Of a stretch of DNA of 32,000 nt, positions 11,887 through 28,373 are shown piece by piece. Both the position numbers and the translations under genes were made by a program. The DNA lies in contig NZ_AP014945.1 in the NCBI RefSeq assembly GCF_001548275.1, forward strand, positions 690,001 through 722,000, read 5' to 3'. Position 1 is the stretch's first letter, and each line of letters begins with the position of its first letter. The notes beneath the pieces are model-generated. The model was not told the origin of the DNA. It did not search any database and was given only the letters and a program-made list of their open reading frames with translations. Source of the DNA: Caldimicrobium thiodismutans (GTDB taxonomy: Bacteria > Desulfobacterota > Thermodesulfobacteria > Thermodesulfobacteriales > Thermodesulfobacteriaceae).

Positions 11887-11913
11887 TTCAAAATTTAAAA
11901 GGAGGTGGAGGCC

Positions 11914-12792
11914 ATGAGTAAAAGAGGGAAGGGTTTGAAGATTATTTCTTCTTTGGCCTTGGGTTTTTTTACTTGTTGCCTTTACACTCAAGATACAATA
12001 AGAGCTGAAAGTTCAGCAAGATCACTTTTCATGAGCACAGCAGGAAGCCTTACTCAGGTTGAAGATAAAGGCTCTACTAAAGGCAAAATTTCAATGCCCA
12101 AAAAAGAGGCAACCTCTAAAAAAAGAACTCAGGTTGCACAAAACACTGCAGATAGCTGGAGTTCAGGGCTTCAGATACAGGTATTAAGAGTAAAAGGAGA
12201 TTCACAAGAAGCTAAACTTGAGCCTATTAATCCTAATAAATATATTTTCAGTGAAGGTGAAAGATTTAAAGTTAGAGTTACAGTCAATTTACCTGGTGTT
12301 ATTATGTTTTATAACATTGATCCAAAAGGAGAGTCATCTTACTTAGGAGCCTGGCCAATAGAAAAGGCCTTTACATCGGTTGAACTTCCTTATGAAGGTT
12401 ATTTTGAATTTTATGGAGCAAAAGGAGTAGATAAGTTATATGTTGTCTTTAAACCCTGTCTGGTTGAATCTACCCTCAAAAGTCAGTTTATGGAAAAAAC
12501 AAATTACAGTAGAAGCATAAGATTAGTTCAGACTGATCTGACAGATAAAGTTAATCTCAAAGATGAAGTTAAAAATGCTTTACCAGTGTGCACTGCTGAT
12601 TTAAAAGAGTATACTCAAGATTCAGTTAACAGAAAGATTTATAATTATGCAACTTATTCAAGATCAATTAGAACTGTTTATGATAAAACTGATAGTTCAG
12701 TTTACGCTTTTACTTCACAATCTCAAAGAAACACTAATAGGAATATTGAAGGAGATTTAATTATGCATGTATTAAATTTACGGTTTAAATAA
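11914..12792 (+). CDS. secreted or lipoprotein with a DUF4384-like beta-sandwich domain
   Basis: Hydrophobic N-terminus ending in cysteines (ALGFFTCC). The central segment YIFSEGERFKVRVTVNLPGVIMFYNIDPKGESSYLGAWP ... GVDKLYVVFKP matches the DUF4384 pattern as I remember it. ATG 11914 with a good SD is preferred to GTG 11905. Confidence 0.55.
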   Translation: MSKRGKGLKIISSLALGFFTCCLYTQDTIRAESSARSLFMSTAGSLTQVEDKGSTKGKISMPKKEATSKKRTQVAQNTADSWSSGLQIQVLRVKGDSQEAKLEPINPNKYIFSEGERFKVRVTVNLPGVIMFYNIDPKGESSYLGAWPIEKAFTSVELPYEGYFEFYGAKGVDKLYVVFKPCLVESTLKSQFMEKTNYSRSIRLVQTDLTDKVNLKDEVKNALPVCTADLKEYTQDSVNRKIYNYATYSRSIRTVYDKTDSSVYAFTSQSQRNTNRNIEGDLIMHVLNLRFK

Positions 12793-12820
12793 AACTTCAA
12801 ACTAAATAGAGGAACAGGAT

Positions 12821-13774
12821 ATGAATATAAGATTAGTAATAGTAGGACTAATCTTATTATTCTTTTCCAACTCTATATTGTTTTTCACTGCCTATGCTTC
12901 AAATTTAGAAGTTATTCAACAACTTAAAAGGCTCAATGAGGCGTTAAAACAAACACAAGAAAGAATTAAAAATGAACTTAAAGATAAAAATAATCAAGAA
13001 ATAAACAGTCAATCCTTCCAAAGAAATATTCAAGAAGTTTTTCAAGAAGAATATAAAAATACACAAATGATAAGTTATAAAGAAGATGATTCTATATTTA
13101 ATCAGGCATTAAGGCAATGTGATGAAATGAAAAAGTCAAAAGAGGATCTTGTTAGTGGTGCAGGTAAAAAAGTTTTAACTGGAGCAGCAATTGGTGCAGC
13201 TATTGGTGCAGCGGCAGGAGGCAAAAAAAGGAGAGAGGAAGGGGCAATACTCGGAGCGATATCAGGAGCAATGGCTGGTTTAGCCTATGAACTTTGGACA
13301 AAAAAGGATCTTTTTGAAGAGTCTCCAGAAAAATTAGCTAAGAGAGTAAAATACAATCCATCTAATGGTTTATATCTTAAAATAGGTGAAATAGTTGTAA
13401 AGAATGAAAATGTAAAAACTGGTGACAATTTAAGATTAATTTTACGGGTTGAATATTTATTTCCAGAGTTTTTCAGCAATAGTGTTTCAGAAAATAAAAA
13501 TCTGTTTATGTTTGGTATGAAGCCTGTTTCAGGAGAAAAAAATGAAGAGTCCTCTTCAGTTTATCATACCATAAAAATAAGAGCATATGTAATTAACAAA
13601 GATAATCAGAATTTTGTTGCTGAGGAGGAATATTCTATACCACCTGGAACCACTCCATTTCTTTATGTCTTCCCCATTTGCGATGCTATACCAAGAGGAG
13701 AACACGAGATCAAATTCGTTGTAGAGAGAATGGGGATAAAAGATGAAAAAATTGTCAGATTTACAAAAATATAA
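12821..13774 (+). CDS. secreted coiled-coil / glycine-zipper protein with a C-terminal beta-rich domain
   Basis: Signal peptide (FTAYAS-N), then a coiled-coil region. Double glycine zipper: GAGKKVLTGAAIGAAIGAAAGG ... GAILGAISGAMAGLA. The ~150-aa C-terminal domain is unassigned. Confidence 0.6.
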   Translation: MNIRLVIVGLILLFFSNSILFFTAYASNLEVIQQLKRLNEALKQTQERIKNELKDKNNQEINSQSFQRNIQEVFQEEYKNTQMISYKEDDSIFNQALRQCDEMKKSKEDLVSGAGKKVLTGAAIGAAIGAAAGGKKRREEGAILGAISGAMAGLAYELWTKKDLFEESPEKLAKRVKYNPSNGLYLKIGEIVVKNENVKTGDNLRLILRVEYLFPEFFSNSVSENKNLFMFGMKPVSGEKNEESSSVYHTIKIRAYVINKDNQNFVAEEEYSIPPGTTPFLYVFPICDAIPRGEHEIKFVVERMGIKDEKIVRFTKI

Positions 13775-15137
13775 ATTTTTTATATTCGTAATTCTTACAA
13801 TATTGTCGATAAGTTATTTTTCTAAATCAATTGCTTATGATTATGATACTGCATCCCAGTATGATGAGGTTAAAGATAGGATAAATGAGGCTTTTAATAA
13901 AGCTGGAATTTTTGAAGCTTATGTCCAATTAGATGAAAAAACCAGAATGTATGAATTAAAAGGAAAATATAGAACTTATGATGAATTTTTATATGCCTAC
14001 ATGATTGCTCAAGCAATAGCAGGAGTCAAAAATGTATCTCCAGTGTATAGTATCAAACATGCTGTTATTATTCACACACCGATTGAGAGATGTTTACCTT
14101 ATGCATTACTCAAGAAGCCCTGTCCTCACTTAGCCAAAAAAGATTATAAAGAAGATTCCCAAGCCGCAAAAGAAATAGAAAAAAAGTTGGGTGAAAAACC
14201 TTCTAATAAGTATGCATTAGTAATTGGGGTATCATCTTTTAAAAATAAACAAATACCTGGTGTTCCTGGTGCAGATAATGATGCTCTTATATGGGGTAAA
14301 TATTTAGAGTCTGAGGGTTTTAAAGTGATTTATCTTTTAAATGAAAATGCAACTAAGGAAAAAGTTAATCTGGCAGTTGATGAGATAATTAAAAGAATGA
14401 AAGAAAATGATATATTTGTTTTCTTTGCAGCAAGTCATGGAACTCCTAAAAAGCCAGATGGGGAAGTTGGTATAGTTTTATATGATAGTGGAGATATTCA
14501 AAAAGGTAAAGTTGGTTGTGGATATGCACCACCTAATGAACCTCATCTTCAAGCAGCAAACAAGATGTGTTATTTAGTAAAAGATTCTTTTTCATTAAAA
14601 GAGGGGATTCTTGATAAATTAGCAAATAAAAAGGTTGTATTTATTCCTATTCTTGATGCTTGTTATTCAGGCGATGCTTTGAGAAGTTACTTAGGGGAAG
14701 TTATAAAAAGTGAAGAGGTAGCACCTCTTGATTTTTATGAGAAGAGGCTTAGAGAGGAAGCTCCGGCATCCCTGTATATGGTTCTTTCATCTTCCTCAGG
14801 TTTCAGACAGGCTTATGGGGCAGATGTTAGAAGTTTTACAGAAGTTGAAAAAGTTTTTAAAAGAAGTATCTCTGAGGTGCCATTTACAGCAAAAGATATA
14901 AAAAAAGAATCTGAACTTGCTCATGGAATTTTTAGTTTTTATTTTGTTAATGGATTGAAACTAAATGAGGGATATATTGCAAGAACTTATAATCAAGTAA
15001 AAGATATAATTGATAGGGAATCTGAAAGAGTGTGTTTAAAAGAGAGAGGAAGAAGTATAAGAGTTATCAGTGAATGTCCAAAAGGAGGTCAAAATCCAGT
15101 GCTTTTAAGAATAAGAAAAGAAGAATTTAAATTTTAA
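13743..15137 (+). CDS. secreted BON-like domain + caspase-fold (peptidase C14) protease
   Basis: Signal peptide. BON-like segment AYVQLDEKTRMYELKGKYRTYDEFLYAYMIAQAIAGVKNVSPVYSI. Caspase core: YALVIGVSSF, FVFFAASHGTP (catalytic His) and IPILDACYSGDAL (catalytic Cys). It overlaps the upstream gene by 32 nt. Confidence 0.75.
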   Translation: MKKLSDLQKYKFFIFVILTILSISYFSKSIAYDYDTASQYDEVKDRINEAFNKAGIFEAYVQLDEKTRMYELKGKYRTYDEFLYAYMIAQAIAGVKNVSPVYSIKHAVIIHTPIERCLPYALLKKPCPHLAKKDYKEDSQAAKEIEKKLGEKPSNKYALVIGVSSFKNKQIPGVPGADNDALIWGKYLESEGFKVIYLLNENATKEKVNLAVDEIIKRMKENDIFVFFAASHGTPKKPDGEVGIVLYDSGDIQKGKVGCGYAPPNEPHLQAANKMCYLVKDSFSLKEGILDKLANKKVVFIPILDACYSGDALRSYLGEVIKSEEVAPLDFYEKRLREEAPASLYMVLSSSSGFRQAYGADVRSFTEVEKVFKRSISEVPFTAKDIKKESELAHGIFSFYFVNGLKLNEGYIARTYNQVKDIIDRESERVCLKERGRSIRVISECPKGGQNPVLLRIRKEEFKF

Positions 15138-15153
15138 AAAGGAGGGGACAAGT

Positions 15154-16050
15154 ATGGGTGTAAAATTTGAGGGAAGAGATTATGATATAGATCAAGGCAG
15201 ATTTCAAAGTATACATATACCAAAGGCTAAAGAAGATGATATTTGGAAAAGAGATTTTTATCAAGAAATTTTTAATATAGAAAATAAAAAAATAGAAGAA
15301 TGGATAAAGAATGTTGGTCCAGAGAAAAATAAAAATGAAATAGAGACTAAGCTTAAACAATTTACAGAATTTTTAAGTGGTGAAAAAGATAAAATATTAA
15401 AAAGTTTTGATAAAGACGAATATCGGCACATGTATCAAGAAGGTAAAGAATCAAATAAATATTTAATTTTCTTAATTCTCAGTATCATTGGAGAAACTGC
15501 AATTTTAATTGTTCAGTCTTTAATGGGTGGAGGGTTTAATCCTTTAATTTTACTATACGCAGGTTTATTAGCAGTAGGAGGGTGGCTTTTAGGAAAGGTT
15601 TGGGCAAATTTTTCTATCAAATATGAGGCACAACATAAAGGTGTTTATGACCCTACGAAACATCCTTCAGTTTTTAACTTGATCTACTTTATCCTTGGTG
15701 TTGCTTTAACCTTATTTGTTGCATTTGTAAGAGCCTTTACTGATGAAGGTTTTGATATTCAGGTTTTTATACTAACAATCTTATTAGCGTTAGTTGTAGC
15801 TTTTTTTGAATCACAACGGGCAATTTGTTTAAAAAAGAAAGATTTAGCAACAACTGGACAAATGATGGCACATCTAATTTTGGCTTCAAAAAAACATAAG
15901 GAAATTTTACCGACATATATATTATTATATGAAGAAATAGTCAATAAACCAAAAGAGTCAGTAGTTAATCAAAATAATCAAGCAAAAGAGCATATGGATA
16001 TGTTAAATCATAATAGAGAATCTCAACAAAATCAAAATCCACAAAATTAA
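15154..16050 (+). CDS. polytopic membrane protein (about 4 TM) with a ~100-aa cytoplasmic N-domain and a Q/N-rich tail
   Basis: Strong SD (aaaggagggg). TM segments include YLIFLILSIIGETAILIVQSL, LILLYAGLLAVGGWLLGKVW, VFNLIYFILGVALTLFVAFV and VFILTILLALVVAFF. The tail is NQNNQAKEHMDMLNHNRESQQNQNPQN. I recognise no family. Confidence 0.55.
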   Translation: MGVKFEGRDYDIDQGRFQSIHIPKAKEDDIWKRDFYQEIFNIENKKIEEWIKNVGPEKNKNEIETKLKQFTEFLSGEKDKILKSFDKDEYRHMYQEGKESNKYLIFLILSIIGETAILIVQSLMGGGFNPLILLYAGLLAVGGWLLGKVWANFSIKYEAQHKGVYDPTKHPSVFNLIYFILGVALTLFVAFVRAFTDEGFDIQVFILTILLALVVAFFESQRAICLKKKDLATTGQMMAHLILASKKHKEILPTYILLYEEIVNKPKESVVNQNNQAKEHMDMLNHNRESQQNQNPQN

Positions 16051-16055
16051 TTAAT

Positions 16056-17114
16056 ATGAAAATCTGTCAAGGAGCTGAATTAAAATTTGAAAATTTACAG
16101 AGACTTAGATTAATAAATTTTAAGCCAAATGAATGTAAAGATATATGGGATATAAATACATTTGCTGAAAAAGAACAAGAGTATATTGAGGAATATGTAA
16201 AAAGAAAACTTAAAGATACTAAGCTAAATAAAGAGGATGAAAAGGAGCTCTTAAGAAAGGAACTTAAAATTACATTCTATATTGAACCGAAAAAAATTAA
16301 TCATAGAAGACTTAAATTTTTAGAAAAAAATCATTTTAAAGAAATTTTTACACAATTTAAACTTGAAAAAATTTTGAAAAACTGGTTGTTTTTTGGGCTC
16401 CTGGTGCCTATTTATATCATTGTAATAATAGGTTTAAATTTTTTTGAAAATATCCTTGATGGTTTTGAAGTTGGATTTGCAAAAATATTAATAGATGGAG
16501 TGATCTATGCTTTCTTATCATTAGTTGCTTGCTGGATAATAGGCTTTTCTTTAGCAAATTATTTTTATATTAATTTTGTAAATGAATATCATAATGAAAT
16601 GCAAAAGAAGGATTCAACCATAGAAAACTTTTATGAGAAATATGCTAAAGATAAGTTTTTTAAAAAATTTCACTTAATTTTTAAAGAAAAAAAAGATTCT
16701 GAAATAGATGTGAAAAATAAAATATTATTTGGAGAATCAATTCATAAAGTTTACTGTATTTTTGGTTTGCTTATTTTGATCTTTGTATATTTATCAATTG
16801 GTATATTAGATTTCAGTGATTTATATAAACTTGTAAAATTATCTTCAGGTATATTTGAAACTGCATCCTATTTTGGATTTTCAGCTCTGCTAATTTCTCT
16901 GGTTTTTAATGGATTTTTCAGAGATTATCTAAGGAATTTTATCTTATTTGAATACGAACAAGCCTTATTAGAGTATGCTTCATGCACAAAGCATAATCAC
17001 CTAATAGATGAATATATAGAGTATGCTTCTAACGAAGAGCATAATCACCAAATTGATGAATGTATTAATAAATTTTATGCAGAAAAAATTCAACCAAAGG
17101 AGGGTGAAATATGA
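16056..17114 (+). CDS. polytopic membrane protein with a K/E-rich N-domain and a duplicated HNH-x-IDE C-terminal motif
   Basis: Starts 5 nt after the upstream stop. Several TM segments (WLFFGLLVPIYIIVIIGL, VIYAFLSLVACWIIGFSLANYFYI, VYCIFGLLILIFVYLSIGIL, YFGFSALLISLVFNGFF). The C-terminus is EYASCTKHNHLIDEYI / EYASNEEHNHQIDECI. I recognise no family. Confidence 0.5.
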   Translation: MKICQGAELKFENLQRLRLINFKPNECKDIWDINTFAEKEQEYIEEYVKRKLKDTKLNKEDEKELLRKELKITFYIEPKKINHRRLKFLEKNHFKEIFTQFKLEKILKNWLFFGLLVPIYIIVIIGLNFFENILDGFEVGFAKILIDGVIYAFLSLVACWIIGFSLANYFYINFVNEYHNEMQKKDSTIENFYEKYAKDKFFKKFHLIFKEKKDSEIDVKNKILFGESIHKVYCIFGLLILIFVYLSIGILDFSDLYKLVKLSSGIFETASYFGFSALLISLVFNGFFRDYLRNFILFEYEQALLEYASCTKHNHLIDEYIEYASNEEHNHQIDECINKFYAEKIQPKEGEI

Positions 17115-17953
17115 AGGGACAATTGAAACACTTCCTGATTGCTCTTATTAGTATTCTTATTTTATTTAGCTATTCTTTTGCAAAAGAGGATATTATTTTT
17201 CTTTATGGTGGGAATGCCTGGAATCTTTTTGAAAGTTATATTAAAAAAGCTGAAAAAGAAGGGAAAAAACTTAAGCTTGGAGATTTAAAGGTTAAAGTGT
17301 GGAATGGTAAAGAATTTGCAGAATATTCAATTAAATGGCAGGATTATTTAAAAGGTGATCCAGTTTTAAAGTTATGGGAAAATAAGCTAAAAAATGTTGA
17401 AGCAAAATATGATCCAAAGGCTGTAGAGACAGCTAAAAAATATGGATGGGTAGTTTATGGAATTGGTTCCGTTCAAGCAGATTCAAGCGCCTCTGAAAAT
17501 ATTTCTAAACCACAAGCTAAAGGATCTTGTAGCCCTGATGCAGAAAGCTTTATTAATCTTGGTATTCAATCAGTAAATAACAAAAAATATGATAATGCTT
17601 TAAAGGAATTTAAAAAAGCTCTTGAAATTTCACCTACCTGTCCAGAAGCTTATGGCAATCTCGTATCCCTTTATGTAATAAAGAAAAATTATAATCTTGC
17701 CATTGATACTTATAAAGAGGGTATCAATAAGGCTGGTGATAATGGATTTCTTCATATAACAGGAGCAATTGCATATACCAAGAGAAGAGATTTTGACTAT
17801 GCTTTAATAGCCCTGGAAAAAGCTTTAACTTCAGGGTTTAAAGATAAATCAGTTTTAGATGGTAAAGACTTAGAACCTTTATTTAGTGCTAAAAAGAAAG
17901 AATTTTGTGGCATACTTGAAAGGGCTGGAATAGTATTAAAAAAGTGCCTGTAG
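17111..17953 (+). CDS. secreted TPR-repeat protein
   Basis: ATGA overlap with the upstream gene and a strong SD (aaggaggg). Signal peptide (SYSFA-K). C-terminal TPR units: AESFINLGIQSVNNKKYDNALKEFKKALEISPTCPEAYGNLVSLYVIKKNYNLAIDTYKEGI. Confidence 0.65.
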   Translation: MKGQLKHFLIALISILILFSYSFAKEDIIFLYGGNAWNLFESYIKKAEKEGKKLKLGDLKVKVWNGKEFAEYSIKWQDYLKGDPVLKLWENKLKNVEAKYDPKAVETAKKYGWVVYGIGSVQADSSASENISKPQAKGSCSPDAESFINLGIQSVNNKKYDNALKEFKKALEISPTCPEAYGNLVSLYVIKKNYNLAIDTYKEGINKAGDNGFLHITGAIAYTKRRDFDYALIALEKALTSGFKDKSVLDGKDLEPLFSAKKKEFCGILERAGIVLKKCL

Positions 17954-17965
17954 GAGGAGGGAATT

Positions 17966-18586
17966 ATGCGTAAAGTTTCAGGAGGATTACTGGGAATAGT
18001 GCTTTTATGCTTTTTTCTTCCATGGATAACTGTTTCTTGTAACAATAATAAGATTTATAGTTTTTCTGGAATTAACTTAGTTATGGGAAAAAAGATACAG
18101 TCTCCTGACGATCTCTTTGGCCCATCTAAGAATTTAAACAAGAAAGAATCAGCTAAGGAAAAAATTGTCAGGGAATGGAAAGCGATAATAGCATTTTTAG
18201 CTGGAATTGCTGGAATTTTAACTTGTTTTTTAATTAAGGCAAATCGCGTGCAGGGAATACTCACAGCTGTCTTTGGATTTCTTGGAGGTATCTTTCTTTT
18301 TCTCTTAAAGAATAAATTTGATAGTGAAATGAATGAAATTATTACGAAAAGTGCAGGGATGATAAATGTTGAGTATCATTTTGGTTTCTGGGTATCACTG
18401 TTACTCTTTTTTGTAGTAGGTATTTTGAATCTCTTATCATTTACAAATGTATTTGACAGATTACTTCCTGGGAAAGTTTTTAATAACCTGCCTGCATCAC
18501 CTCGCTGCAGTAAGTGTGGAGCAGAGGTTTCACCTGATGACAAAGTCTGCAGTAAATGTGGACATTCCTTGAAAGAAGAGACTTAA
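17966..18586 (+). CDS. membrane protein (about 4 TM) with a C-terminal zinc ribbon
   Basis: SD taggagg. TM segments, then CSKCGAEVSPDDKVCSKCG (CxxC-x10-CxxC) at the extreme C-terminus. Confidence 0.6.
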   Translation: MRKVSGGLLGIVLLCFFLPWITVSCNNNKIYSFSGINLVMGKKIQSPDDLFGPSKNLNKKESAKEKIVREWKAIIAFLAGIAGILTCFLIKANRVQGILTAVFGFLGGIFLFLLKNKFDSEMNEIITKSAGMINVEYHFGFWVSLLLFFVVGILNLLSFTNVFDRLLPGKVFNNLPASPRCSKCGAEVSPDDKVCSKCGHSLKEET

Positions 18587-18718
18587 ATGTTAGGTATGGT
18601 ATGTAGAGAAAAATTTTTTAAAAATATTAGGGCAATAGATTTAACGGTAAAGATCCATAAACTTGTGGATTAAGGGCTGTGTAATTGAAAGGTTTTAAAG
18701 AAAATAGGAGGTAGATGG

Positions 18719-20171
18719 ATGAGGCGAGGTAACTTTTTAGCCCTGATTTGGGCAGTTTTATTTTGCCTCTGGTTGGCTGGGTCTGCGATAGCTGCAACCT
18801 TTACCGTGAACACCACTGAAGATACTCCTGATGCAAGACCGGGAGATGGCACCTGTGCTGACAGTAGTGGCAGATGTTCTTTGCGTGCAGCGATAATGGA
18901 GGCAAATGCTCTGGGTGGCGGGCCCCATACTATTATCTTGCAGTCAGGACAAACTTATAATCTTTCCCTTGATCCAAATAAAGGAGATGAAGCCTGGGGT
19001 TCAGAGGATGATCTTGATATAGTTGCCGTTATAACTATCCAGGGAAATGGGGCAACAGTGCAGAGAAATCCTGTTTTCAATTGCACAGACTATGGCAATA
19101 TAGGAGCATTTCGCATCTTTGAAGTGATGAGTGGAGGCGAGCTTACAATTAAAAATTTAACGATAAAAAATGGCTGTGATAAAGATGGAGGCGGAATTAA
19201 GAATGCCGGAAAACTTAGCATCATCAGCTCTACGATCACGGGAAATAGTGCAAGCTACGACGGAGGCGGAATCTACAACTCTGGAACACTCACCATAACA
19301 GGTTCAACTATATCAGGAAATAGGGCGTTCTACTACGGAGGCGGAATCTATAACTCTGGAACAATCACCATTACAAGCTCAACCATATCTGGAAATAGTG
19401 CATACGGCTCCGTTCCCCCCGAAGGAGGCGGAATCTATAACACCAGAACTGGAACACTCACCATCACAAGCTCCATTATAACAGGAAATAGTGCAGGTAA
19501 AAACGGAGGCGGAATCTATAACTCTGGAACATTCACCATCACCAACTCCACTATATCAGGAAATAGTGCAGACTGGCGTGGAGGCGGAATCAGTAACTCT
19601 GGAACACTCACTATCACAAGCTCCACTATATCAGGAAATAATGCAGGATTTTTGGGCGGCGGAATCTATAACGATTATGGAACACTCACCATCACCAATA
19701 TCACTTTATCATGAAATAATGCCAAAAAAAAGTGGAGGAGGAATCTATAGCCGTTATGGAACTTTAAATGCAACTTTTATCACTGTTGCCAAAAATAATG
19801 CTCCAGAAGTTAGTGGTATTTACAGCATCGCATCAAGTGATAGAGTTAAAATCAAAAACTCTATAATTGTAGATAATACAGGAGGATCAAATTGTTATGG
19901 CGGTATCACTGCCTTAGGAGTTAACTTTGCTGGAGACACTTCTTGCGGTTCTGGCTTTAGATTAGCCTCTCCCTATCACCTAAAACTTCAACCCCTTGCC
20001 AACAACGGTGGCCCCACTCAGACCCATGCCCTTGACTCTGGAAGTGTTGCCATTGATGCAGTTACCGACTGCACAGACCTGAATGGCAAACCAGTTACCA
20101 CCGACCAGAGGGGAGCTCCAAGACCCCAGGGAACAAGCTGCGATGCCGGAGCTTTTGAATTCGGAAAATAG
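18719..20171 (+). pseudogene. parallel beta-helix surface/secreted protein (Pmp-repeat / choice-of-anchor-Q-like), disrupted
   Basis: Signal peptide (GSAIA-AT), then CSLRAAIMEANA, then eight GGGIYN..G.LTIT.STISGNSA turns. C-terminus: NNGGPTQTHAL ... TDQRGAPRPQGTSCDAGAFEF. The reading frame is broken by TGA at 19712-19714 (where the repeat consensus has GGA) and by an A8 run at 19724-19731 that needs A7 to join the downstream frame. Confidence 0.7.
19187..19803 (+). repeat. tandem 69-84-bp coding repeats (beta-helix turns), highly similar at the DNA level
   Basis: Recurring ggaggcggaatctataactctggaaca(c/t)tcaccatcac(a/c)a(g/a)ctccactatatcaggaaata(g/a)tgca. This also creates the spurious alternate-frame ORF starting at 19491. 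Confidence 0.85.
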
Positions 20172-20297: not shown

Positions 20298-20452
20298 GGG
20301 GCAGACACTCAGGTCTGCCCCACATCTTGATACACATAACAGGGAAACACAGAGGTTTCCCCCTACAAAACAAAGGGTCAAAAGGTATTATCCAGCTTTT
20401 AGGGGTTTAAATTTTAAAGCCTTATAAGGGTTCAAGATTTTGAATCTCTACA
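20298..20452 (+). repeat. REP-like hairpin cluster C
   Basis: GGGGCAGAC-actcag-GTCTGCCCC (20298-20321). cacataacaGGGAAACacagagGTTTCCCcCTACaaaa (20333-20370). aGGGGTTTAAATTTTAAAGCC (20401-20421). GTTCAAGATTTTGAAtctCTACa (20430-20452). The last three modules recur at 28158-28261. Confidence 0.75.
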
Positions 20453-20584
20453 AATTATAAATAGATTAAAGAGGGATCATGTCCTTTATTCTTTTAATTG
20501 ATTTTTTTAAAATTAGCAAAGGGAAATATGAATCTTGTTTTTTTTCATTTTTCGTTTAAGTTTAAGAATTAAGGGGGAATTTTT

Positions 20585-21565
20585 ATGCAAAGGGCTAAAA
20601 AAAGTGTCATATCCAAAGTAGCCTTAAAGGAAATGTTAATTCGGGATCTCCCTGAACTTTTGAAGGAAGATCCCCTTCTTAGGGATTATGTAGCAAGTCT
20701 TTTCAAAGAAAATTTTGCAGAAAAAAGAACCACTGAAGAAGAGATCAAAGCCCTTTTAGAGGAAATTAAGAACCTAAGAATTGAAAGTGAAAAAAGATGG
20801 GAAGAACATTCAAAGAGGTTTGAGGAGCAAACTCAGATTCTGAAAGAGCATTCAAAGAGGCTTGAGGAGCATTCAAAGAGGATTGAAGAGCAAACTCAGA
20901 TTCTGAAAGAACATTCAAAGAGGCTTGAGGAGCAAACTCAGATTCTGAAAGAGCATTCAAAGAGGCTTGAGGAACATTCTCAGATTTTGAAAGAACATTC
21001 AAAGAAGCTTGAGGAACATTCTCAGATTTTGAAAGAACATTCAAAGAGGCTTGAGGAACATTCTCAGATTTTGAAAGAACATTCAAAGAAGCTTGAAGAA
21101 CTCTCTCAAGGCAATAAAATCCTGATGGAAGAAATCCTTGCCTTAAGAAAGAGACAGGATGTGCAGATTGGTGCCCTCGGGGCAAGATGGGGAATTAAAT
21201 CAGAGAAAACCTTTCGCAATGCAGTAAAAGGGCTTCTTGAGGAAACCTTTGGGGTTAAGGTAGAACATTATGAAACAACTGATTTAGAAGGTGAGGTCTT
21301 TGAAGGTTTTCCTGGAAAAAGGGTTGAAATTGACCTTATTATTAGAGATGGTGAGCTTATTGTAGCTGAGATTAAATCTTCCGTTAGTCCTGCTGATGTC
21401 TTGCTTTTTGAGAGAAAGGTAAAGTTTTTTGAGAAAAAAGAAGGGAGAAAAGTCACAAGAAAGATAATAATTTCACCTATGATTGATGATGAGGCAAAGA
21501 ACTTTTGCAAAAGTCTTGAGATAACCTTTTACACTGATGTCCCTGATAAAGAAGAAGGATTATAA
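20585..21565 (+). CDS. coiled-coil protein with a C-terminal PD-(D/E)XK-type nuclease-fold domain (DUF3782-like family)
   Basis: SD aaggggg. Central heptad array (EHSKRLE/EQTQILK). The C-terminal GKRVEIDLIIRDGELIVAEIKSS gives a D...E.K motif. This architecture is common among hypothetical proteins of thermophiles. Confidence 0.6.
   Translation: MQRAKKSVISKVALKEMLIRDLPELLKEDPLLRDYVASLFKENFAEKRTTEEEIKALLEEIKNLRIESEKRWEEHSKRFEEQTQILKEHSKRLEEHSKRIEEQTQILKEHSKRLEEQTQILKEHSKRLEEHSQILKEHSKKLEEHSQILKEHSKRLEEHSQILKEHSKKLEELSQGNKILMEEILALRKRQDVQIGALGARWGIKSEKTFRNAVKGLLEETFGVKVEHYETTDLEGEVFEGFPGKRVEIDLIIRDGELIVAEIKSSVSPADVLLFERKVKFFEKKEGRKVTRKIIISPMIDDEAKNFCKSLEITFYTDVPDKEEGL
20804..21118 (+). repeat. 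in-frame tandem repeat, 21-bp heptad / 42-bp unit, about 7.5 units
   Basis: Units at 20804, 20867, 20909, 20951, 20993, 21035 and 21077, with an extra half unit at 20846. Two sequence subtypes occur (caaactcagattctgaaa and cattctcagattttgaaa). Confidence 0.9.
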
Positions 21566-21818
21566 GAGAAGCAAAAAATTTACAAGTTTTAGTTGAAAAG
21601 TATAGAATTCCTTTGTCAGATTTATCAGATTGTTTTGGAACAAGTGGTCTTTTAAATACTACTAACAATTTAGCAGAAATTTTTGCAGATGGATCTGTAT
21701 AACTACTTGGATAGGTTTTGATCCTTCCAAGAAAAAATAAGAGAAGTAAGAGGTAAGAGTAGGGGAAGCCCTTTTGTGTTTGCCAAATCTTAGTCAATCT
21801 GTCCAATAATTTAAAGGA

Positions 21819-22090
21819 ACATATAACAGGCAAACGCCACAAAGGGGAAAACACATAGGTTTGCTTTTACTAAAAAAGCCAATTTAAAAAGAGGCAAATC
21901 TTAAGTCTCAAAGGATAGAGACGCATACAGTAACATAGGCAATCTTGCCTGTGGAGGTAAATTACACTCCAATGTATGAAAGAAACACAGACAAGAATGT
22001 CTGTGCTACAACAGACCCACAAAAAAATTCAAGGGGTATAAAATTTTAAACCCCTACTATTTAAGTCTCAAAATACCTGGACACATACAT
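21819..22090 (+). repeat. REP/REPIN-like mosaic cluster B (includes copy B of the 160-bp element, 21929-22090)
   Basis: A 30-bp module TTAAGTCTCAAA..a...gACrCATACA occurs twice in direct orientation (21901-21930 and 22061-22090). It flanks GTAA-CATAGGCAATCTTGCCTGTG ... CACAGACAAGAATGTCTGTG-CTAC ... GGGGTATAAAATTTTAAACCCC-TAC. Confidence 0.85.
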
Positions 22091-22094
22091 GTTC

Positions 22095-22123
22095 TTGACA
22101 AGTTTAAAATGAATATTTATAAT
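22095..22123 (+). promoter_or_regulatory. consensus sigma70-type promoter of the NurA-HerA-DUF4338 operon
   Basis: TTGACA (22095-22100), exactly 17 nt, then TATAAT (22118-22123). It starts 4 nt after the repeat element and lies ~68 nt upstream of ATG 22191. Confidence 0.6.
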
Positions 22124-22190
22124 ATAAAAATAAAGTCTATGAATTGTAGAGATATGAAAACTTATAAAATTTTGATTGAATCGTAGATGT

Positions 22191-23342
22191 ATGGAGAAAG
22201 TGGATCAAATTTCCTTAGCTGAATTACCTGAGGCTCTTGTTGAAGAGATGCTCTTAAAAAGTGAAGCTATTGGAAATGTGCTTTACAATTCTTTGAGGGA
22301 AATCCAGGAGAAAAAAACTGAAATACGGAAACAATTGCAAGAAGGGAATATCTTGAAACGGGATTCAGAAGTTGGTTATCCGGGGATACCTACAACTTGT
22401 GGTGTAGATGGTTCTTATGCAGTGGATAGACTTCTATCAACTGATCTTGCTGCTTGTGCGGCAGTTGCAATTGAAGGATTAACACCACCTTCTGAAAAAA
22501 GATTCTGGGAAAAACCTCACCACAGAGTCTTTATTCATCCAGAGAAGCACGATCCAGACACAGCCACAGTGCTCAGAGGATTAATGATGGAAATGGAACT
22601 TGAGCTTGCAGTAAAAGCTCCTCATGATATAGTTTTTTTAGACGGTTCTCTTACAACACCTTTGATATATATGAATCAGGCAATAAATAAAGTATTAGAA
22701 TGGGAAAATGAAGGAGTTATTACAGAAATAGGTAAAGAGTTAAAGAATAGATTTCGGCAGTTTCTTACTGATTATAAAACCATTTTAGAATCCGCAAGAA
22801 CCGACAAATTATGGGTAAGTTTACCTAAATATACTACAAAAAGAGAATTAGGTAAAATGTTTAATTGGCCGGCTAATTATGATGACCGAGCTATCTTGAC
22901 ATACATTTTATCTCCCGGTGAATTTACTTCTCCAATTCCTTTAGAAAAACCTTTACAACCATGGCATTTAAAAATTCCTTTTAATGACAAAGAGCTTGAA
23001 AAATTAAGAGACGAAATTATTTCAGCAATGAATAATATTTATGTTATGTATTACAGATCTCATAATTGGAAACCAGTTTTCAGGATTGAGATGGCATCTT
23101 TTATTGCCAATGATATTTCTCGTATAGCGATCTTGCTTCAGGGCCTCAAGTATCAAACTGGAACACCCGGAATAATAGAACCCTATCCTCTTTATATAGC
23201 AGACAGAATGGTAAAACATCTTAGTAAGGCTGTATCTGCTTCAAGACAGACAACTACCAGAAGAATGATGGAATTACACAATGGGGATATTGGAGAGATT
23301 TTATTTGGCATGCACAATTATAGAACCGAAAGCGGGAGATGA
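22191..23342 (+). CDS. NurA-domain nuclease
   Basis: NurA-type acidic motifs TCGVDGSY and IVFLDGSLTTP, and a ~380-aa size. Its stop overlaps the herA-like start (ATGA). The track starts at TTG 22176; I prefer ATG 22191, although its SD is weak. Confidence 0.7.
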   Translation: MEKVDQISLAELPEALVEEMLLKSEAIGNVLYNSLREIQEKKTEIRKQLQEGNILKRDSEVGYPGIPTTCGVDGSYAVDRLLSTDLAACAAVAIEGLTPPSEKRFWEKPHHRVFIHPEKHDPDTATVLRGLMMEMELELAVKAPHDIVFLDGSLTTPLIYMNQAINKVLEWENEGVITEIGKELKNRFRQFLTDYKTILESARTDKLWVSLPKYTTKRELGKMFNWPANYDDRAILTYILSPGEFTSPIPLEKPLQPWHLKIPFNDKELEKLRDEIISAMNNIYVMYYRSHNWKPVFRIEMASFIANDISRIAILLQGLKYQTGTPGIIEPYPLYIADRMVKHLSKAVSASRQTTTRRMMELHNGDIGEILFGMHNYRTESGR

Positions 23343-25117
23343 ATATGAGTAATCAAAGAATAAATATAGAACAATTAATCAGCACCTCTGAGAAAATTGG
23401 AACAATAGGTTCTCCCTCTTCTACCAGTGAACTTTCCTTAGATATTCTTGGCACTGCTGTTGGGAAAAAATTAGTAGGTGAGCTTGCATTTTTTAGATTT
23501 TTTCAAGATGGGAAGCCACATTATGCATTGGGACAAATTACAGAAGTTCAACTACGGAATATCTGGCTTGAAGATCCTACAATGAGATCTCTTGCAAGAC
23601 AGAGGGGTCAGGTCAATCCTGTTAGTGGACAACAAGATACCCACCTTGGAAATATGACAGTAAGTGCGGTATTCAGTGACAATGGAAATAGATTTGAACC
23701 GAGTATTTTAGGAACTGTTCCAGCTACAGGGACTTTTATCTATTTAGCAACTGACGATATTTTAGATAGGTTGTTAGAACAATATAGAAAAGAGATATTT
23801 TATTTGGGTCATGTTTATGGTTCAAAACCAAAGCTTCCACTCTGGTTCAAGCATTTTGGGACAGGAGCACACGGAGCTGGCGAGGCTTATCACATAGGGA
23901 TTTTTGGTAAAACTGGTTCTGGTAAGTCTGTTTTGGCTAAGATGATTCTCCTTGCTTACGCAAGATATTCTGATATGGCTATATTTATTATAGACCCACA
24001 GGGTGAATTTTCAAAAGACGCCCGAGGAGAAATGAGAACAGAAGGATTCTCCTTAAATTTATCCAAGGCTCTTTCACATTTGAATAAGAATGTAATTATT
24101 AAAAGTGTCAAAAATTTAGTTTTGGATAGATGGCTGCTTTTTAGTGAAATTCTTTATGAATCACTATTCTTTGAACGTCTATCAATTCCAGAGGGAGAAA
24201 ATCGAAGAATAGCCTCCGAAGTTTTAGCAGAAAAATTACAGGAGAAAAGAGTTAGATTAGAGGATTTACATAAACCTGAATCTTTTAACTATGCCTGGGA
24301 AACTCTCGGTGATAGCAATGTTCAAATGCTATTCTACAGGAGCCAGGAATCTCGCAATAGATTCAACACAGTTTATAAAAAAGCAAATAGAGATGAATTT
24401 TATAAAAATTTCTGGTTACCAGTAACTGAATTATTCAAAAAGGACCGTCCTAATGCTGTTAGTGTAGATGAGTTAATAAAAGAAACTTTCAAGATGCAAG
24501 AAGTAAATCTTTTTGGTATTCAAAGACCAGTAGTAATTGTAGATTTGTCAAAAGAGATGGCTACCGGCCTTTTTTGGAGTGATACGATCCAGGCATTGGT
24601 GATAAAGAGATTATTAGATGGGTTAACATATTTAGCCGAAAGGGCTTACCAAGAAAATAGATTTTTAAATACACTTGTGATATTAGATGAGGCCCATAGA
24701 TTAGCCCCAAGGGAAAAAATTGAAAATGAAAAACAAGATTCAGTAAGACTTTCACTTCTTGACGCAGTAAGAACTACAAGAAAATATAGACTTGGATGGA
24801 TGTTTATAAGTCAGACTTTATCAAGTTTACATAAAGAGATTATTAGTCAATTAAGAATCTTCTTTTTTGGTTTTGGTCTGTCTCTGGGTTCTGAATTTAT
24901 GTCCTTAAAGGAAATTGTTGGTGGTGACCCTAATGCCCTTAAACTCTATCAATCCTTTCGTGACCCGCACTGTGCCTTTGACTTAGCCTCAAGACAATAT
25001 TCTTTTATGACTATTGGTCCTGTCTCACCTCTCTCTTTCGCAGGAACACCTTTATTTTTCACAGCTTTTAACACACCAGAGGAATTTCTAAAGGCAAATA
25101 ACTTAAGATATGAATGA
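23339..25117 (+). CDS. HerA-like (FtsK/HerA superfamily, DUF87) hexameric ATPase
   Basis: N-terminal barrel-like region (IGTIGSPSSTSELSLDILG ... ALGQITEV). Walker A: IFGKTGSGKSVLAK. Walker B: TLVILDEAHRLAP. A C-terminal FISQTLSSL follows. The 592-aa length is typical of HerA. Confidence 0.8.
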   Translation: MNMSNQRINIEQLISTSEKIGTIGSPSSTSELSLDILGTAVGKKLVGELAFFRFFQDGKPHYALGQITEVQLRNIWLEDPTMRSLARQRGQVNPVSGQQDTHLGNMTVSAVFSDNGNRFEPSILGTVPATGTFIYLATDDILDRLLEQYRKEIFYLGHVYGSKPKLPLWFKHFGTGAHGAGEAYHIGIFGKTGSGKSVLAKMILLAYARYSDMAIFIIDPQGEFSKDARGEMRTEGFSLNLSKALSHLNKNVIIKSVKNLVLDRWLLFSEILYESLFFERLSIPEGENRRIASEVLAEKLQEKRVRLEDLHKPESFNYAWETLGDSNVQMLFYRSQESRNRFNTVYKKANRDEFYKNFWLPVTELFKKDRPNAVSVDELIKETFKMQEVNLFGIQRPVVIVDLSKEMATGLFWSDTIQALVIKRLLDGLTYLAERAYQENRFLNTLVILDEAHRLAPREKIENEKQDSVRLSLLDAVRTTRKYRLGWMFISQTLSSLHKEIISQLRIFFFGFGLSLGSEFMSLKEIVGGDPNALKLYQSFRDPHCAFDLASRQYSFMTIGPVSPLSFAGTPLFFTAFNTPEEFLKANNLRYE

Positions 25118-25153
25118 AAAGTCTTTCTATTAGTAGTTAACAATCCTGAAAAA

Positions 25154-26281
25154 ATGGATTCACAAGAACTAAAAAATAAAATTATTCAGGCTTTAGAGGA
25201 GCAGGGATTTAAAATAAATCCTCATTTAAGACTATCAGAAGTTAACAAAGTTATTTATCGTCAGGTTCAACAAAAAGCAAAGTTTGAGCAAATATTGAAA
25301 CATAAAAAATTTTTAATAAATTCTATAAAAAAAGTGACAAATTATTGTAGAAATGGGTCTGAAATTATTCCCGGGGAAATTTCTTTAGAATTAAGAGAAG
25401 TTAAATCAGGTTCTATTGAAGAAATTTTATTTAAGTGGTGGAATTTAATCTGGTGGAGTATTCCATTTCAACGATCATATGGTCGTCAAATGAGATTTTT
25501 GATGTGGGATACAACACATGATATGCCATTTGGTTTAATATGTTTGCAAAGTCCTGTTCTAAAAATGTCTGTTCGTGATAATTATCTCGGCATATCTAAG
25601 GATGAATTAGATATATGGGTAAACAAGTCATTGAATGCCCAACGAGTTGGAGCTTTACCTCCATATAATGAACTATTAGGTGGAAAAATGGTTGCTCTTG
25701 CTCTGACATGTAATGAAATCAGAGAGGCTTATAAAAAAAAATATGAAAATAGTATTACAATTCTTAAAGGAAGAAAATTAGAACCAGAACTTTTATTTAT
25801 TACTACCACAAGTGCCTTTGGAAAAAGTAGTTTATATAATCGATTAAAATATAATGATGAAATAGTAGCAAAAAGTTTGGGGTATACACGAGGTTCTGGA
25901 ACATTCCATATTCCAGAAAAGTTATATCAAGAACTTGTAAAATTTTTATCTCTAAAGGGTATCAATACTACAAGAGGATTTGGGAATGGGCCATCAAAAA
26001 AACTTAAACTAATAAGTCTTGCTTTAAAATATCTTGGATTATCTAAATTTGAATATCATGGAATTAAAAGAGAATTCTATTTATTTCCGCTTGTGAAAAA
26101 TTTAAAAGAAGTTATTAGTAAAAAAGAAGAACCTATCTGGTATGACAGACCATTTGAGAAACTGGTTGATTTTTGGAAGGAAAGATGGGCATTACCAAGA
26201 GCTAAAAGAGTCCAGAAGTGGAAAAATTTTGATAAAAATAAATTCTTTTATGAAGTTGAGAGACTTTTAATGGAGTTATAA
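25154..26281 (+). CDS. DUF4338-like protein (the domain found in Druantia DruA)
   Basis: Ordered blocks resemble the DUF4338 consensus as I remember it: GRQMRFLMWD, FGLICLQSPVLKMSVRDNYLGIS, NAQRVGALPPYNELLGGKMVALAL, LLFITTTSAFGKSSLYNRL and GYTRGSG. It lies 36 nt downstream of herA on the same strand and is noticeably more AT-rich than herA. Confidence 0.5.
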   Translation: MDSQELKNKIIQALEEQGFKINPHLRLSEVNKVIYRQVQQKAKFEQILKHKKFLINSIKKVTNYCRNGSEIIPGEISLELREVKSGSIEEILFKWWNLIWWSIPFQRSYGRQMRFLMWDTTHDMPFGLICLQSPVLKMSVRDNYLGISKDELDIWVNKSLNAQRVGALPPYNELLGGKMVALALTCNEIREAYKKKYENSITILKGRKLEPELLFITTTSAFGKSSLYNRLKYNDEIVAKSLGYTRGSGTFHIPEKLYQELVKFLSLKGINTTRGFGNGPSKKLKLISLALKYLGLSKFEYHGIKREFYLFPLVKNLKEVISKKEEPIWYDRPFEKLVDFWKERWALPRAKRVQKWKNFDKNKFFYEVERLLMEL

Positions 26282-26513: not shown

Positions 26514-28074
26514 TTAATTTAATTTTTCCCAGAAAAAGCCCTTGATATTCCTATCCCCTGAAGAAAACTCTATCCCTATAAGATAAATCTCTTTGAATGA
26601 ACCCTCATACTTCTTATGATACCCCTTCTCCTTAAGTTGAACTAAAGCTTTACCCTCTCCCCCCTCTCCCCCCTCTCCCTCAACCACCTTGAACTCAAAA
26701 AGATAAACCCTATCCCTATAGAGCACCGTCAAATCTATCTGACCCTTATTCGTTATATCCTCAGGGATCACCTCAAGCCCTGACCCACATAAAAAGGCAT
26801 AAAAACAACTTGCATAATACCCCTCATAACGAGAAAGCTCATTCTTCCTGAACCAATCATGGGGTATCCCTGCATAAAGACCCCTCAAGAACCTTCTTCA
26901 TCTTCTCAAAATCCCTCTCCCTCACTGCCTCAATCATCTTAAGAGATAGCCTTGGTCTTTCTGAACTGAGCTGAGTAAAATAAGAAAAAAGAACTCTATT
27001 TAAACTAATCTTTACCTCTTTATTCGGATAAGAAAGCTTATAGAGAATTAACCCTTCCTCTTCAATAGTTTCTTTAATGGTCAAATAACCCACCTGAAAG
27101 AGAAGGTTTTCTGGCTCAATATAGTCAAGGTCAAAGGTGCCAATAAGGTCATCAGTTGCAGTAAGGTCTTCAAGCTCGGGAAGATAAAAACGTTTCTCAA
27201 GAAGAAGTTTCATAAGAAAACTTGGAGTCCCAGTTTCAAACCAGTAGGGGTGGAATTTTTTTTCCTCTAAATAGAGAAGGATATCAAAGGGATTGTAGAG
27301 AGGCTCCCCAAGCCAGGAATAACCATTATACCAGCATTTTATAAGCTTTAAATCCTTATCTTGCAGTTCCTCTCTGAAAACCTCTTCAAGTTCCTCTTGA
27401 GTGTATCCACAGATAGTTGAATACTCCTTGCTTAAAGTAATATCTCTTAACTGATTTAGACCTGAAAAAAGAGAAACCTTTGAGAATTTTGAAACCCCTG
27501 TAATAAAGACAAACTTTAAATAAACATCGGCATCCTTTATAACCCCATAGAGATTCTTTAAATGCTCCCTTAAGGTTAAACTTAGTTCCTTGTTTTCTAT
27601 GCGATCAAGAATGGGTTTGTCATATTCATCTATCAGAACTACAACCTTAGTTTTATATTTTTCATAGGCCTTTTCAATAAGATCCTCAAAAGAAGACCTA
27701 TAATCAGAGGAATCTTCCCAATCTATTTCAAGTGTTTTATAGTTTTTCTTAAGAATTTTTCTTATCCGCAAAAGGAAATCTTCTTCACTTAAGATATTGC
27801 CAGCACCAAAACTTATGTGAATAACAGGATACCTGATACTCCAGTCCCAGTTCTTCTCAAGATAGAGCCCCTGGAAAAGATCTTTTCTTCCGAGAAAGGC
27901 CTGCTTAAGGGTGTCCACAAAAAGGGATTTTCCAAATCTCCTTGGGCGGGAGAGAAAATAGTAAGTTCCCTCTTCAACAAGTTTTGCCACAAAAGGTGTC
28001 TTATCCACATAATAATAGGGTTCACTTCTAATCTTTTCAAAACTTGAAATCCCGGTGGGAAGTTTTTTCTCCAT
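26514..28074 (-). pseudogene. AAA-ATPase-like + PDDEXK_9 (DUF1703) family protein, frameshifted
   Basis: The N-terminal part (28074-26857) has the family hallmarks: LPTGISSFEKIRSEPYYYVDKT, FLSRPRRFGKSL and VVLIDEYDKP. The C-terminal part (26888-26514) has the nuclease core: GQIDLTVLYRDRVYLFEFKV. The two frames overlap at 26857-26888, with a C4/G4 run at 26881-26884. Confidence 0.7.
26653..26679 (-). repeat. 9-bp microsatellite x3 inside the PDDEXK_9 core
   Basis: ccctctccc repeated three times on the plus strand. It encodes GEGGEGGEG immediately after the EFKV catalytic strand. Confidence 0.9.
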
Positions 28075-28157: not shown

Positions 28158-28333
28158 GTAGGATTTAAAATTTTAAACCTTGTAAAAGTTCAAGATTTTG
28201 AACCCCTACATTAATGCAAAAGAACACATAACAGGCAAACACATGGGTTGTCCTTACAAAATACAGGTTTTTTTCCTATAACCGAAGTAGTAAAAAAATC
28301 CTTTTAAGTCTCAAAAGATATGGACGCATACAA
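28158..28333 (+). repeat. REP-like hairpin cluster D
   Basis: GTAG-GATTTAAAATTTTAAACC (28158-28179). GTTCAAGATTTTGAAC-CCCTACa (28188-28210). cacataacaGGCAAACacatggGTTGTCCtTACaaaa (28225-28261). TTAAGTCTCAAAAGATATGGACGCATACAA (28304-28333). Confidence 0.8.
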
Positions 28334-28373
28334 AATCTTGGCAAAAGAGGGATTGAGGTTTATATTTTATAGC

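Follow-up and report, generated by a model that had tools for sequence, protein, structure and literature searches.

A NurA-HerA operon with a DruA-like third gene in Caldimicrobium thiodismutans: a conserved, horizontally mobile trio and candidate defence module

Type I Druantia (DruABCDE) was reportedly validated by experiment as a defence system by Doron et al. in 2018. The papers that we found give no mechanism for this system, reported in 2018, or for its protein DruA (DUF4338), and the recent mechanistic work on Druantia concerns type III (DruH-DruE). In archaea and in Deinococcus, a hexamer of HerA translocates DNA into a dimer of the nuclease NurA, in a machine for processive end resection (PMC3326311, PMC5715905, PMC9960219, PMC3300031). 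In Thermus ICETh1, a NurA-like nuclease and the HerA-like TdtA, encoded beside a restriction enzyme and a methylase, are needed for DNA donation (“transjugation”) (PMC5365140). According to work from the Aravind laboratory, DUF4338 is a GNAT domain that occurs in fusion with DndF in some proteins, and DndH has the role of a HerA/FtsK “capture” protein (PMC10853773). Here we analyse a stretch of 32,000 nucleotides of the genome of Caldimicrobium thiodismutans, a bacterium of hot springs (contig NZ_AP014945.1, positions 690,001 to 722,000), referred to as the window and numbered from its first letter, in which a nurA gene, a herA gene and a druA-like gene follow one another. The reading that we favour, and consider fairly probable from the sequences compared, is that this trio is a horizontally mobile functional module and a candidate anti-phage or anti-plasmid system, in which a HerA-NurA motor would be coupled to a GNAT-like DruA.

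The translations of the open reading frames (ORFs) place nurA (22191-23342, 383 amino acids), herA (23339-25117, 592 amino acids, a HerA/FtsK-superfamily ATPase with DUF87) and the druA-like gene THC_0714 (25154-26281, 375 amino acids, a DUF4338/DruA protein) on the + strand. For nurA the ATG start is favoured, with an alternative TTG start at 22176 in the mechanical ORF call. The start of herA overlaps the stop codon of nurA (ATGA), and a second ATG at 23345, which has a better-spaced GGGAG, is an alternative start. No terminator-like site was detected in the 36-nucleotide spacer between herA and druA (25118-25153, + strand), and co-transcription of druA with nurA-herA is therefore probable. 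Upstream of nurA, a sigma-70-type site TTGACA-N17-TATAAT at 22095-22123 (+ strand) matches at 12 of 12 positions and is the sole perfect match within 21.4-26.9 kb; promoter-like sites as a class are not raised in the region (16, against 18.6 ± 4.5 in shuffles). It is the putative promoter of the operon. All of these features (the three genes on one strand, the promoter sequence, the overlap and the spacer) had been described in an earlier note made from the letters alone, and every motif quoted there is found in the three translations.

The guanine-plus-cytosine (GC) content of druA is 29.4%, against 35.7% in herA and 36.2% in nurA. The earlier note was right that druA is lower than herA in GC. 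The modular assembly that it read from this difference was rejected, given that a low GC content characterises druA across its family (below that of herA in 39 of 45 loci) and that the three genes share their nearest relative and co-diverge.

The window NurA matches Pfam PF09376 over profile positions 2-253 of 254 (E 3.2e-11, 43.6 bits, cutoff 21), and a precomputed PF09376 match is found on all 120 listed homologues. The translation contains the motifs CGVDGSY and VFLDGSL. Among 65 homologues CG.DG, DGS and EPYPL..ADR are invariant, as are residues D73 (CGVDGS), E136 and D151 (FLDGS), with H375 nearly so. These four residues, which were mapped onto D51, E105, D126 and H411 of PfNurA by spacing only (PMC3300031), are the putative catalytic residues, and the protein is predicted to act as a nuclease of the NurA family (RNase H/PIWI-like). 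No model in PADLOC-DB v2 matches it. The public C. thiodismutans record labels this NurA-domain gene (22191-23342) “herA helicase,” which is an annotation error.

The window HerA matches Pfam DUF87 (E 2.3e-12, 47.9 bits, cutoff 23.2) and PADLOC HerA (2.5e-15). It carries the Walker A motif GKTGSGKS and the Walker B motif VILDEAH (LDEAH); in 73 homologues GKTGSGKS and DEA.R are invariant, and the N-terminal 180 residues are highly conserved. In known complexes, the HAS-barrel is the N-terminal domain of HerA that docks NurA; no Pfam HAS-barrel match was found in the window HerA. The sole PDB sequence match of this protein is the defence HerA 8wiv (E 8e-5), and the NCBIfam model HerA_antiphage_2 yields 24 bits, its cutoff being 850.

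The resemblance of the third ORF to DUF4338, proposed earlier from ordered sequence blocks, extends over its full length, with matches to Pfam DruA (PF14236; positions 5-295 of 297, E 6e-72, 242.7 bits, cutoff 27) and to PADLOC DruA1 (positions 16-386 of 407, E 5.1e-87, 290.6 bits). The blocks in its translation are, in order, GRQMRFLMWD, SPVLKMSVRDNYLGI, NAQRVGALPPYNELLGG, TTTSAFGKSSLYNRL and GYTRGSG; the invariant motifs of DruA are GR..R, RD, GA.PPYN...GGK, T..S..G.SS.YNRL and G.T.G.G.FH. About 57 invariant columns are common to 22 DruA sequences of the window clade and 21 of the canonical clade, at approximately 30% identity. The AlphaFold 2 (AF2) model has a predicted local distance difference test score (pLDDT) of 83 and a predicted template modelling score (pTM) of 0.82. 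When it was searched with Foldseek, the top PDB matches were nearly all GNAT-fold acyl-CoA enzymes, the best at E 0.019 and none below 0.001. The predicted fold is consistent with a GNAT domain without proving it. Homologues 69-81% identical to this protein occur in Thermodesulfovibrio, Caldisericum, Rosettibacter (Ignavibacteriota), “Deltaproteobacteria” and many metagenomes, and NCBI labels such relatives “Druantia protein DruA,” separately from NurA.

The linkage of the three genes was followed in two censuses, one of 12 genomic loci seeded on DruA and one of 80 metagenome loci seeded on HerA. NurA (52-78% identical) adjoins DruA in 9 of the 12 DruA-seeded loci, from Thermodesulfovibrionales, Acidobacteriota, Nitrospira, Clostridia, Saprospiraceae, Leptospiraceae, “Deltaproteobacteria” and other lineages, and HerA (62-82% identical) then follows in all 7 DruA-NurA loci in which the contig continues. 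The remaining three are uninformative: one contig ends within DruA, the Scalindua sequence is a DruA fragment, and a Methanosarcinales contig ends after DruA, kinase-AAA, CARF and restriction-modification genes. Among the HerA-seeded loci, 48 of the 57 that are informative have a DruA-like gene, and the seven NurA-HerA loci without a visible one all end inside co-oriented insert families that are placed elsewhere between DruA and NurA. Dereplication at 90% identity left 36 HerA clusters, 25 with a resolved DruA architecture and 11 in which the DruA region lies beyond the fetched DNA. The association of DUF4338 with NurA-HerA is thus conserved in other genomes.

The usual order is DruA-NurA-HerA, with nurA and herA overlapping and a gap between druA and nurA of typically 2-12 nucleotides (up to approximately 60 in a few loci). 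The window order NurA-HerA-DruA is rare. It recurs in L073, a divergent high-GC lineage in which DruA is 39% identical and the herA-druA spacer is 34 nucleotides; in L083, DruA is inverted and lies downstream of NurA-HerA. The linkage therefore survives permutation, inversion, insertions and a fall of DruA identity to 33-39%. The proteins of the trio are 50-82% identical between hosts of many phyla, and Thermodesulfovibrio sp. 3462-1 is the common nearest relative of all three window proteins. Over 38 loci, the pairwise identities correlate with r = 0.92 for DruA-NurA, 0.70 for DruA-HerA and 0.72 for NurA-HerA (Mantel p <= 0.001). From the linkage, the co-divergence and the invariant catalytic signatures, we infer that the three genes are inherited together under purifying selection, as a unit that passes from phylum to phylum. 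The permuted order in the window is a local rearrangement, and the genes so arranged would be expressed from their own strong promoter.

Two further ideas were considered and not retained. A possible remnant of the druA 3′ end upstream of nurA (22124-22153 against 26232-26264, score 32), which would have accounted for the permuted order, was dropped, its score being approached by 12 of 2000 shuffles, by 4 of 239 window tiles and by other pieces of druA (score 30). The idea that druA is an independent insertion-sequence (IS)-like insertion by an unrelated NurA-HerA pair arose from the cross-phylum identity and the short contigs. It was rejected, as NurA and HerA travel and co-diverge with DruA. 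No convincing terminal inverted repeats were found around druA, the only pair being 72% complementary and AT-rich.

Co-oriented extra genes lie between members of the trio in 21 loci, at the DruA/NurA junction in 11 and at the NurA/HerA junction in 10. The insert families are recurrent and mostly known defence genes. They comprise TmtA of Tiamat (1043 amino acids, PADLOC 2e-100), an LmuB-like SMC ATPase (approximately 700 amino acids, 1.7e-51) with an Hjc-like nuclease (approximately 175), the GmrSD type IV restriction enzyme (591), a DndB/DpdB-like protein with GIY-YIG (488), a Ser/Thr-kinase-ORC/AAA protein (853) with a CARF-like partner (369), and a YunG protein (approximately 132) with a family of approximately 370 amino acids that has no Pfam or PADLOC match. 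A ThaI restriction enzyme and methylase also occur among the inserts as a restriction-modification pair. In the locus of the closest relative, two methyltransferases and HinfI are followed by DruA, TmtA, NurA, the ThaI restriction enzyme with its methyltransferase, and HerA. A bulk scan of the 148 nearest-neighbour ORFs of 72 loci returned 167 Pfam families and no conserved synteny; the commonest flanking families are large serine recombinases, DNA methylases, restriction enzymes, ORC-CDC6-like/CARF proteins and LmuB. The setting had been described beforehand as resembling a defence island, which agrees with the known defence genes embedded in and around the trio across loci. A syntenic housekeeping locus is not what is observed, given the 50-82% identity across phyla and the 167 families of neighbours.

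The family of approximately 370 amino acids is itself a candidate new defence gene. In 11 loci (including L017 4488-5985, L023 2262-3353 and L035 2572-3690) it is a co-directional insert, placed at one or the other of the two junctions of the trio, and in 5 of these 11 it is preceded by a 132-amino-acid YunG-domain protein.

The frequency of these inserts is one ground for reading the locus as two independent units that are co-located in defence islands, namely a NurA-HerA system (for defence or repair) and a solo DruA. The other grounds are that DruA occurs elsewhere with different partners (DruB-E; SspFGH-like modules), and two particular loci. A distant NurA-HerA pair on Rhizobium leguminosarum pRlX5 (L101 4764-10994; NurA 25% and HerA 32% identical) has no DruA nearby by a sensitive local hidden Markov model (HMM) search. 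On a Methanosarcinales metagenome-assembled genome contig (L005 466-7304), a DruA-like gene 71% identical to bacterial ones is followed by kinase-ORC/AAA, CARF-like, DpnII-like restriction enzyme and N6_N4 methylase genes and then by the contig end, with no NurA-HerA before it. Set against this, the co-divergence of DruA with NurA is stronger than that of NurA with HerA (0.92 versus 0.72), druA and nurA lie 2-12 nucleotides apart in most tight loci, and the association is kept through permutation, inversion and low DruA identity. Moreover, no locus was found with this DruA clade and another set of partners that demonstrably lacks NurA-HerA. We therefore regard two separate units as unlikely, and the Rhizobium pair indicates that linkage to DruA is a property of one NurA-HerA clade.

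Both of these loci merit a remark of their own. The DruA of the Methanosarcinales contig reflects either inter-domain transfer or a binning artefact. The Rhizobium pair, which is flanked by an unassigned 387-amino-acid ORF and by a 678-amino-acid ORF with a GHKL-ATPase-like motif, may be a different module based on NurA-HerA.

Compared with type I Druantia, the trio has in common a full-length DruA, approximately 30% identical to that of Nitrosococcus pNWAT01, and a DruA that is usually first in the operon and upstream of a DNA motor. The canonical operon of pNWAT01 reads DruA, a 955-amino-acid protein, DruD and DruE, as confirmed by the DruD and DruE matches. In contrast, the window and most trio loci lack DruB, DruC, DruD and DruE, HerA and NurA stand in place of the DruE helicase, and the DruA of the trio belongs to a separate clade. 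The window operon is not a type I Druantia. Two trio loci may nevertheless be composite Druantia/NurA-HerA systems. In L004 (2195-9257, − strand), a DruE-family helicase (PADLOC DruE1 4e-185) and an unassigned 742-amino-acid gene form a divergent operon beside DruA-NurA-HerA, and in L020 (50-2908) a DruE-like helicase (PADLOC DruE1 2e-107) lies directly upstream of NurA.

With the archaeal and Deinococcus HerA-NurA complex, the window pair shares a NurA-domain nuclease encoded upstream of, and overlapping, a HerA/DUF87 gene, with the acidic and Walker motifs kept. This likeness would fit a housekeeping operon for double-strand break repair in a thermophile with an unrelated neighbour gene, as would the end resection performed by NurA-HerA in archaea and Deinococcus (PMC3326311, PMC9960219) and the NCBI label of the relatives, “DNA double-strand break repair nuclease NurA.” In bacteria, such labels are often not about repair. 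The window pair differs from the repair machine in being linked, obligately, to DruA and not to Mre11/Rad50, in its horizontal mobility and in its variable contexts, and it is far from the repair equivalogs (NCBIfam NurA_Sulf, 19.5 bits against a cutoff of 400; helicase_HerA, 17.9 against 970) and from every solved HerA or NurA sequence. An identity of 70-87% to proteins of unrelated phyla is incompatible with vertical descent, the flanks differ in nearly every locus, and in the window the genes belong to a small accessory segment with repeats at its borders. No Mre11 or Rad50 gene was found in the 32-kb window, in line with what had been claimed: it has no ORF above 600 amino acids and none of Rad50 size, and all ORFs of approximately 400 amino acids are otherwise assigned. 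Judged by these sequences, the operon would fall outside the archaeal-type HerA-NurA repair operons, and the housekeeping explanation is effectively excluded by how similar the proteins are across phyla, by the changing flanks and by equivalog scores that are very low.

The SIR2-HerA and DUF4297-HerA systems are likewise compact mobile operons in which an effector enzyme accompanies a HerA-family ATPase, and the best PADLOC matches of the window ATPase are HerA models, with weak scores (2.5e-15). They differ in that the effector of the trio is NurA instead of a SIR2 or DUF4297 nuclease and that the third gene is DruA; beside the window herA neither a SIR2 nor a DUF4297 effector was found, its neighbours being NurA and DruA. 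The DndFGH/SspFGH modules also join a HerA/FtsK-type ATPase (DndH/SspH) to nuclease activity, and in them DruA/DUF4338 is fused to DndF in some members (PMC10853773) or lies beside SspFGH-like genes. This is seen on a plasmid of Haloplanus sp. GDY1 (L096 7639-17468), where a 705-amino-acid DruA is followed by SspF/DndF-like, SspG-like and SspH/DndH-like (HerA/FtsK ATPase) genes and where a divergent operon with a DEAD/DEAH helicase is also present; similar long DruA matches occur on several haloarchaeal plasmids. The window, in contrast, lacks the DndF, DndG and DndH architecture and any link to phosphorothioate modification, and the activities of the trio are carried by three separate small proteins.

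A likeness in gene layout to a transfer machinery is seen with the mobile element ICETh1 of Thermus (Tth111II, NurA-like, TdtA, methylase), in which the gene for a hexameric ATPase resembling HerA also has a NurA-like gene directly upstream, with restriction-modification genes in the same operon (PMC5365140). The trio locus L098 (NurA, ThaI restriction enzyme, methyltransferase, HerA) is similarly laid out. The role reported for the Thermus genes is DNA donation, for which the NurA-like protein and TdtA are required, and DruA is not reported there; the likeness is one of gene layout. By analogy, the trio could be a module of a mobile element for DNA processing or transfer, with HerA pumping DNA and NurA trimming it for excision, replication or donation. 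The wide horizontal spread of the cassette would suit such a role, as would the large serine recombinases, which in at least four loci are encoded directly 3′ of HerA and share its strand. Yet a recombinase is absent from the surroundings of most loci, including the window, and the 148 flanking ORFs contain no recurrent genes for a relaxase, a coupling protein, replication or conjugation. What recurs inside the cassette is immune effectors, and the family of DruA comes from a defence system reportedly validated by experiment, type I Druantia (Doron et al. 2018). A transfer function thus appears rather improbable, and a defence module remains our preferred reading. The recombinases (Resolvase+Recombinase+Zn_ribbon_recom; L020 5817-7109, L048 3755-4974, L088 1150-2586, L039 7734-8612) are a possible route by which the cassette is mobilised.

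A mechanism for the candidate defence module can be outlined by analogy with the archaeal and Deinococcus machines. The HerA ring translocase would feed DNA into the NurA nuclease dimer, and the complex would processively degrade DNA in which ends or nicks are exposed. Examples would be phage DNA during injection or replication and DNA already cut by the restriction enzymes embedded in the cassette (“cut, then shred”), a cooperation that would fit the frequency with which such enzymes are embedded. DruA may provide regulation or specificity, as the subunit by which the motor-nuclease is licensed or held back, and its invariant loop, which would correspond in position to the cofactor-binding motif of GNAT proteins, is a putative cofactor loop. 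The same role is presumed for DruA beside DruE in type I Druantia and beside the HerA-type motor of SspFGH/DndFGH-like modules, since the repeated pairing with different DNA motors (DruE, SspH/DndH, HerA) points to a modular licensing or sensor function. Phage defence, the NurA-HerA complex, the DNA-end substrate and the role of DruA are all put forward here as proposals.

A broader hypothesis, which we advance tentatively and hold to be somewhat short of an even chance, is that DruA acts as a licensing or sensor subunit of GNAT type, portable between interchangeable motor-nucleases (DruE, SspFGH/DndFGH or a HerA-NurA “shredder”), and that the trio is a new, widespread three-gene defence system whose operon also serves as a “scaffold” for other systems. 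If so, the trio would be the simplest setting for working out what DruA does.

Several observations weigh against the defence reading or parts of it. The assignment to defence draws on genomic association, which can also mark genes that are riding on mobile islands, and the metagenome loci are not fully independent samples. The proposed role of DruA is speculation. The GNAT call relies on Foldseek matches that are not significant and on one published statement (PMC10853773), and sequence and profile searches of the PDB with DruA gave no match. The same searches with NurA also gave no match, not even to a NurA in the PDB, and the AF2 model of NurA, built on an alignment of 37 sequences at >=70% identity, reached a pLDDT of 52 and is unusable. 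Inserts reach 3.7 kb, which means that tight translational coupling is not required. Viral sequences yielded a single match, in IMG/VR, where a truncated DruA lies on a 4.6-kb contig with unrelated downstream ORFs; HerA gave no match in phage genomes. This scarcity is neutral as to a role in defence.

Full-text literature searches, whose coverage did not extend to subscription journals and supplementary tables, found nothing that joins DruA/DUF4338 with NurA-HerA, which agrees with the statement of the earlier note that it knew of no such system. Within that coverage, DUF4338 is named in only four papers. The NurA-containing trio is not described in PMC10853773, nor in the YprA paper or the phosphorothioate paper. 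We rate the trio as an undescribed, widespread and conserved combination of known parts, of which an earlier mention is possible. The presence of DruA beside the biochemically well-understood HerA-NurA pair offers a tractable route to its function. If the trio acts in defence, NurA, so far viewed as a repair nuclease, would join the immune effectors. Moreover, the cassette hosts at least five known kinds of defence as well as the uncharacterised family of approximately 370 amino acids, and may serve as an anchor for the discovery of defence genes, comparable to the Hma/BREX loci.

In the window, clusters of repeats resembling repetitive extragenic palindromic (REP) elements mark out the accessory segment. 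A mosaic cluster at 21800-22101 precedes the operon, with related copies at approximately 20330-20460, and a distal cluster at 28160-28345 closes the segment; the modules are found at these three sites only in the 32 kb and split the segment into two cassettes. The −35 box of the nurA promoter is inside a repeat copy (22060-22101) that recurs at 28303-28344, just before a radical-SAM gene at 28320. The repeats reported earlier as bracketing the operon do exist. They do not bracket the trio alone, however: the clusters at 21800-22101 and 28160-28345 also enclose a split gene downstream, and none lies directly 3′ of druA. Genes or pseudogenes of the PD-(D/E)XK type had been proposed on the flanks and are present on both sides, with a DUF3782+PDDEXK_10 gene upstream and the split gene, with PF09820 AAA-ATPase_like and PDDEXK_9 domains, downstream (Pfam). 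Scans of the window for tRNA genes and Rfam families returned no matches.

The split gene (26514-28074, − strand) consists of a PF09820 ORF of 405 amino acids and a PF08011 PDDEXK_9 ORF of 124 amino acids, which overlap by 32 nucleotides in different frames. Because the two domains are normally fused, it seems to be a pseudogene with a frameshift or the product of an error in sequencing. The upstream DUF3782+PDDEXK_10 gene (20585-21565) contains approximately 20 tandem coding repeats of 21 nucleotides at 20739-21179. These encode heptads (HSKRLEE/QTQILKE) and thus a long repetitive coiled-coil, and the product has a weak PADLOC match to the type III CRISPR-associated accessory model C3a181 (1.3e-14).

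Farther upstream, a low-GC block (24-33%) at 11900-18600 contains same-strand ORFs that mostly have no Pfam assignment, among them a caspase-domain (Peptidase_C14) protein at 13743-15137. This block may be another horizontally acquired or conflict-related region. At 18719-20171, overlapping ORFs of 331 amino acids (with Chlamydia-PMP repeats) and 226 amino acids suggest a single autotransporter-like gene that a frameshift has interrupted.

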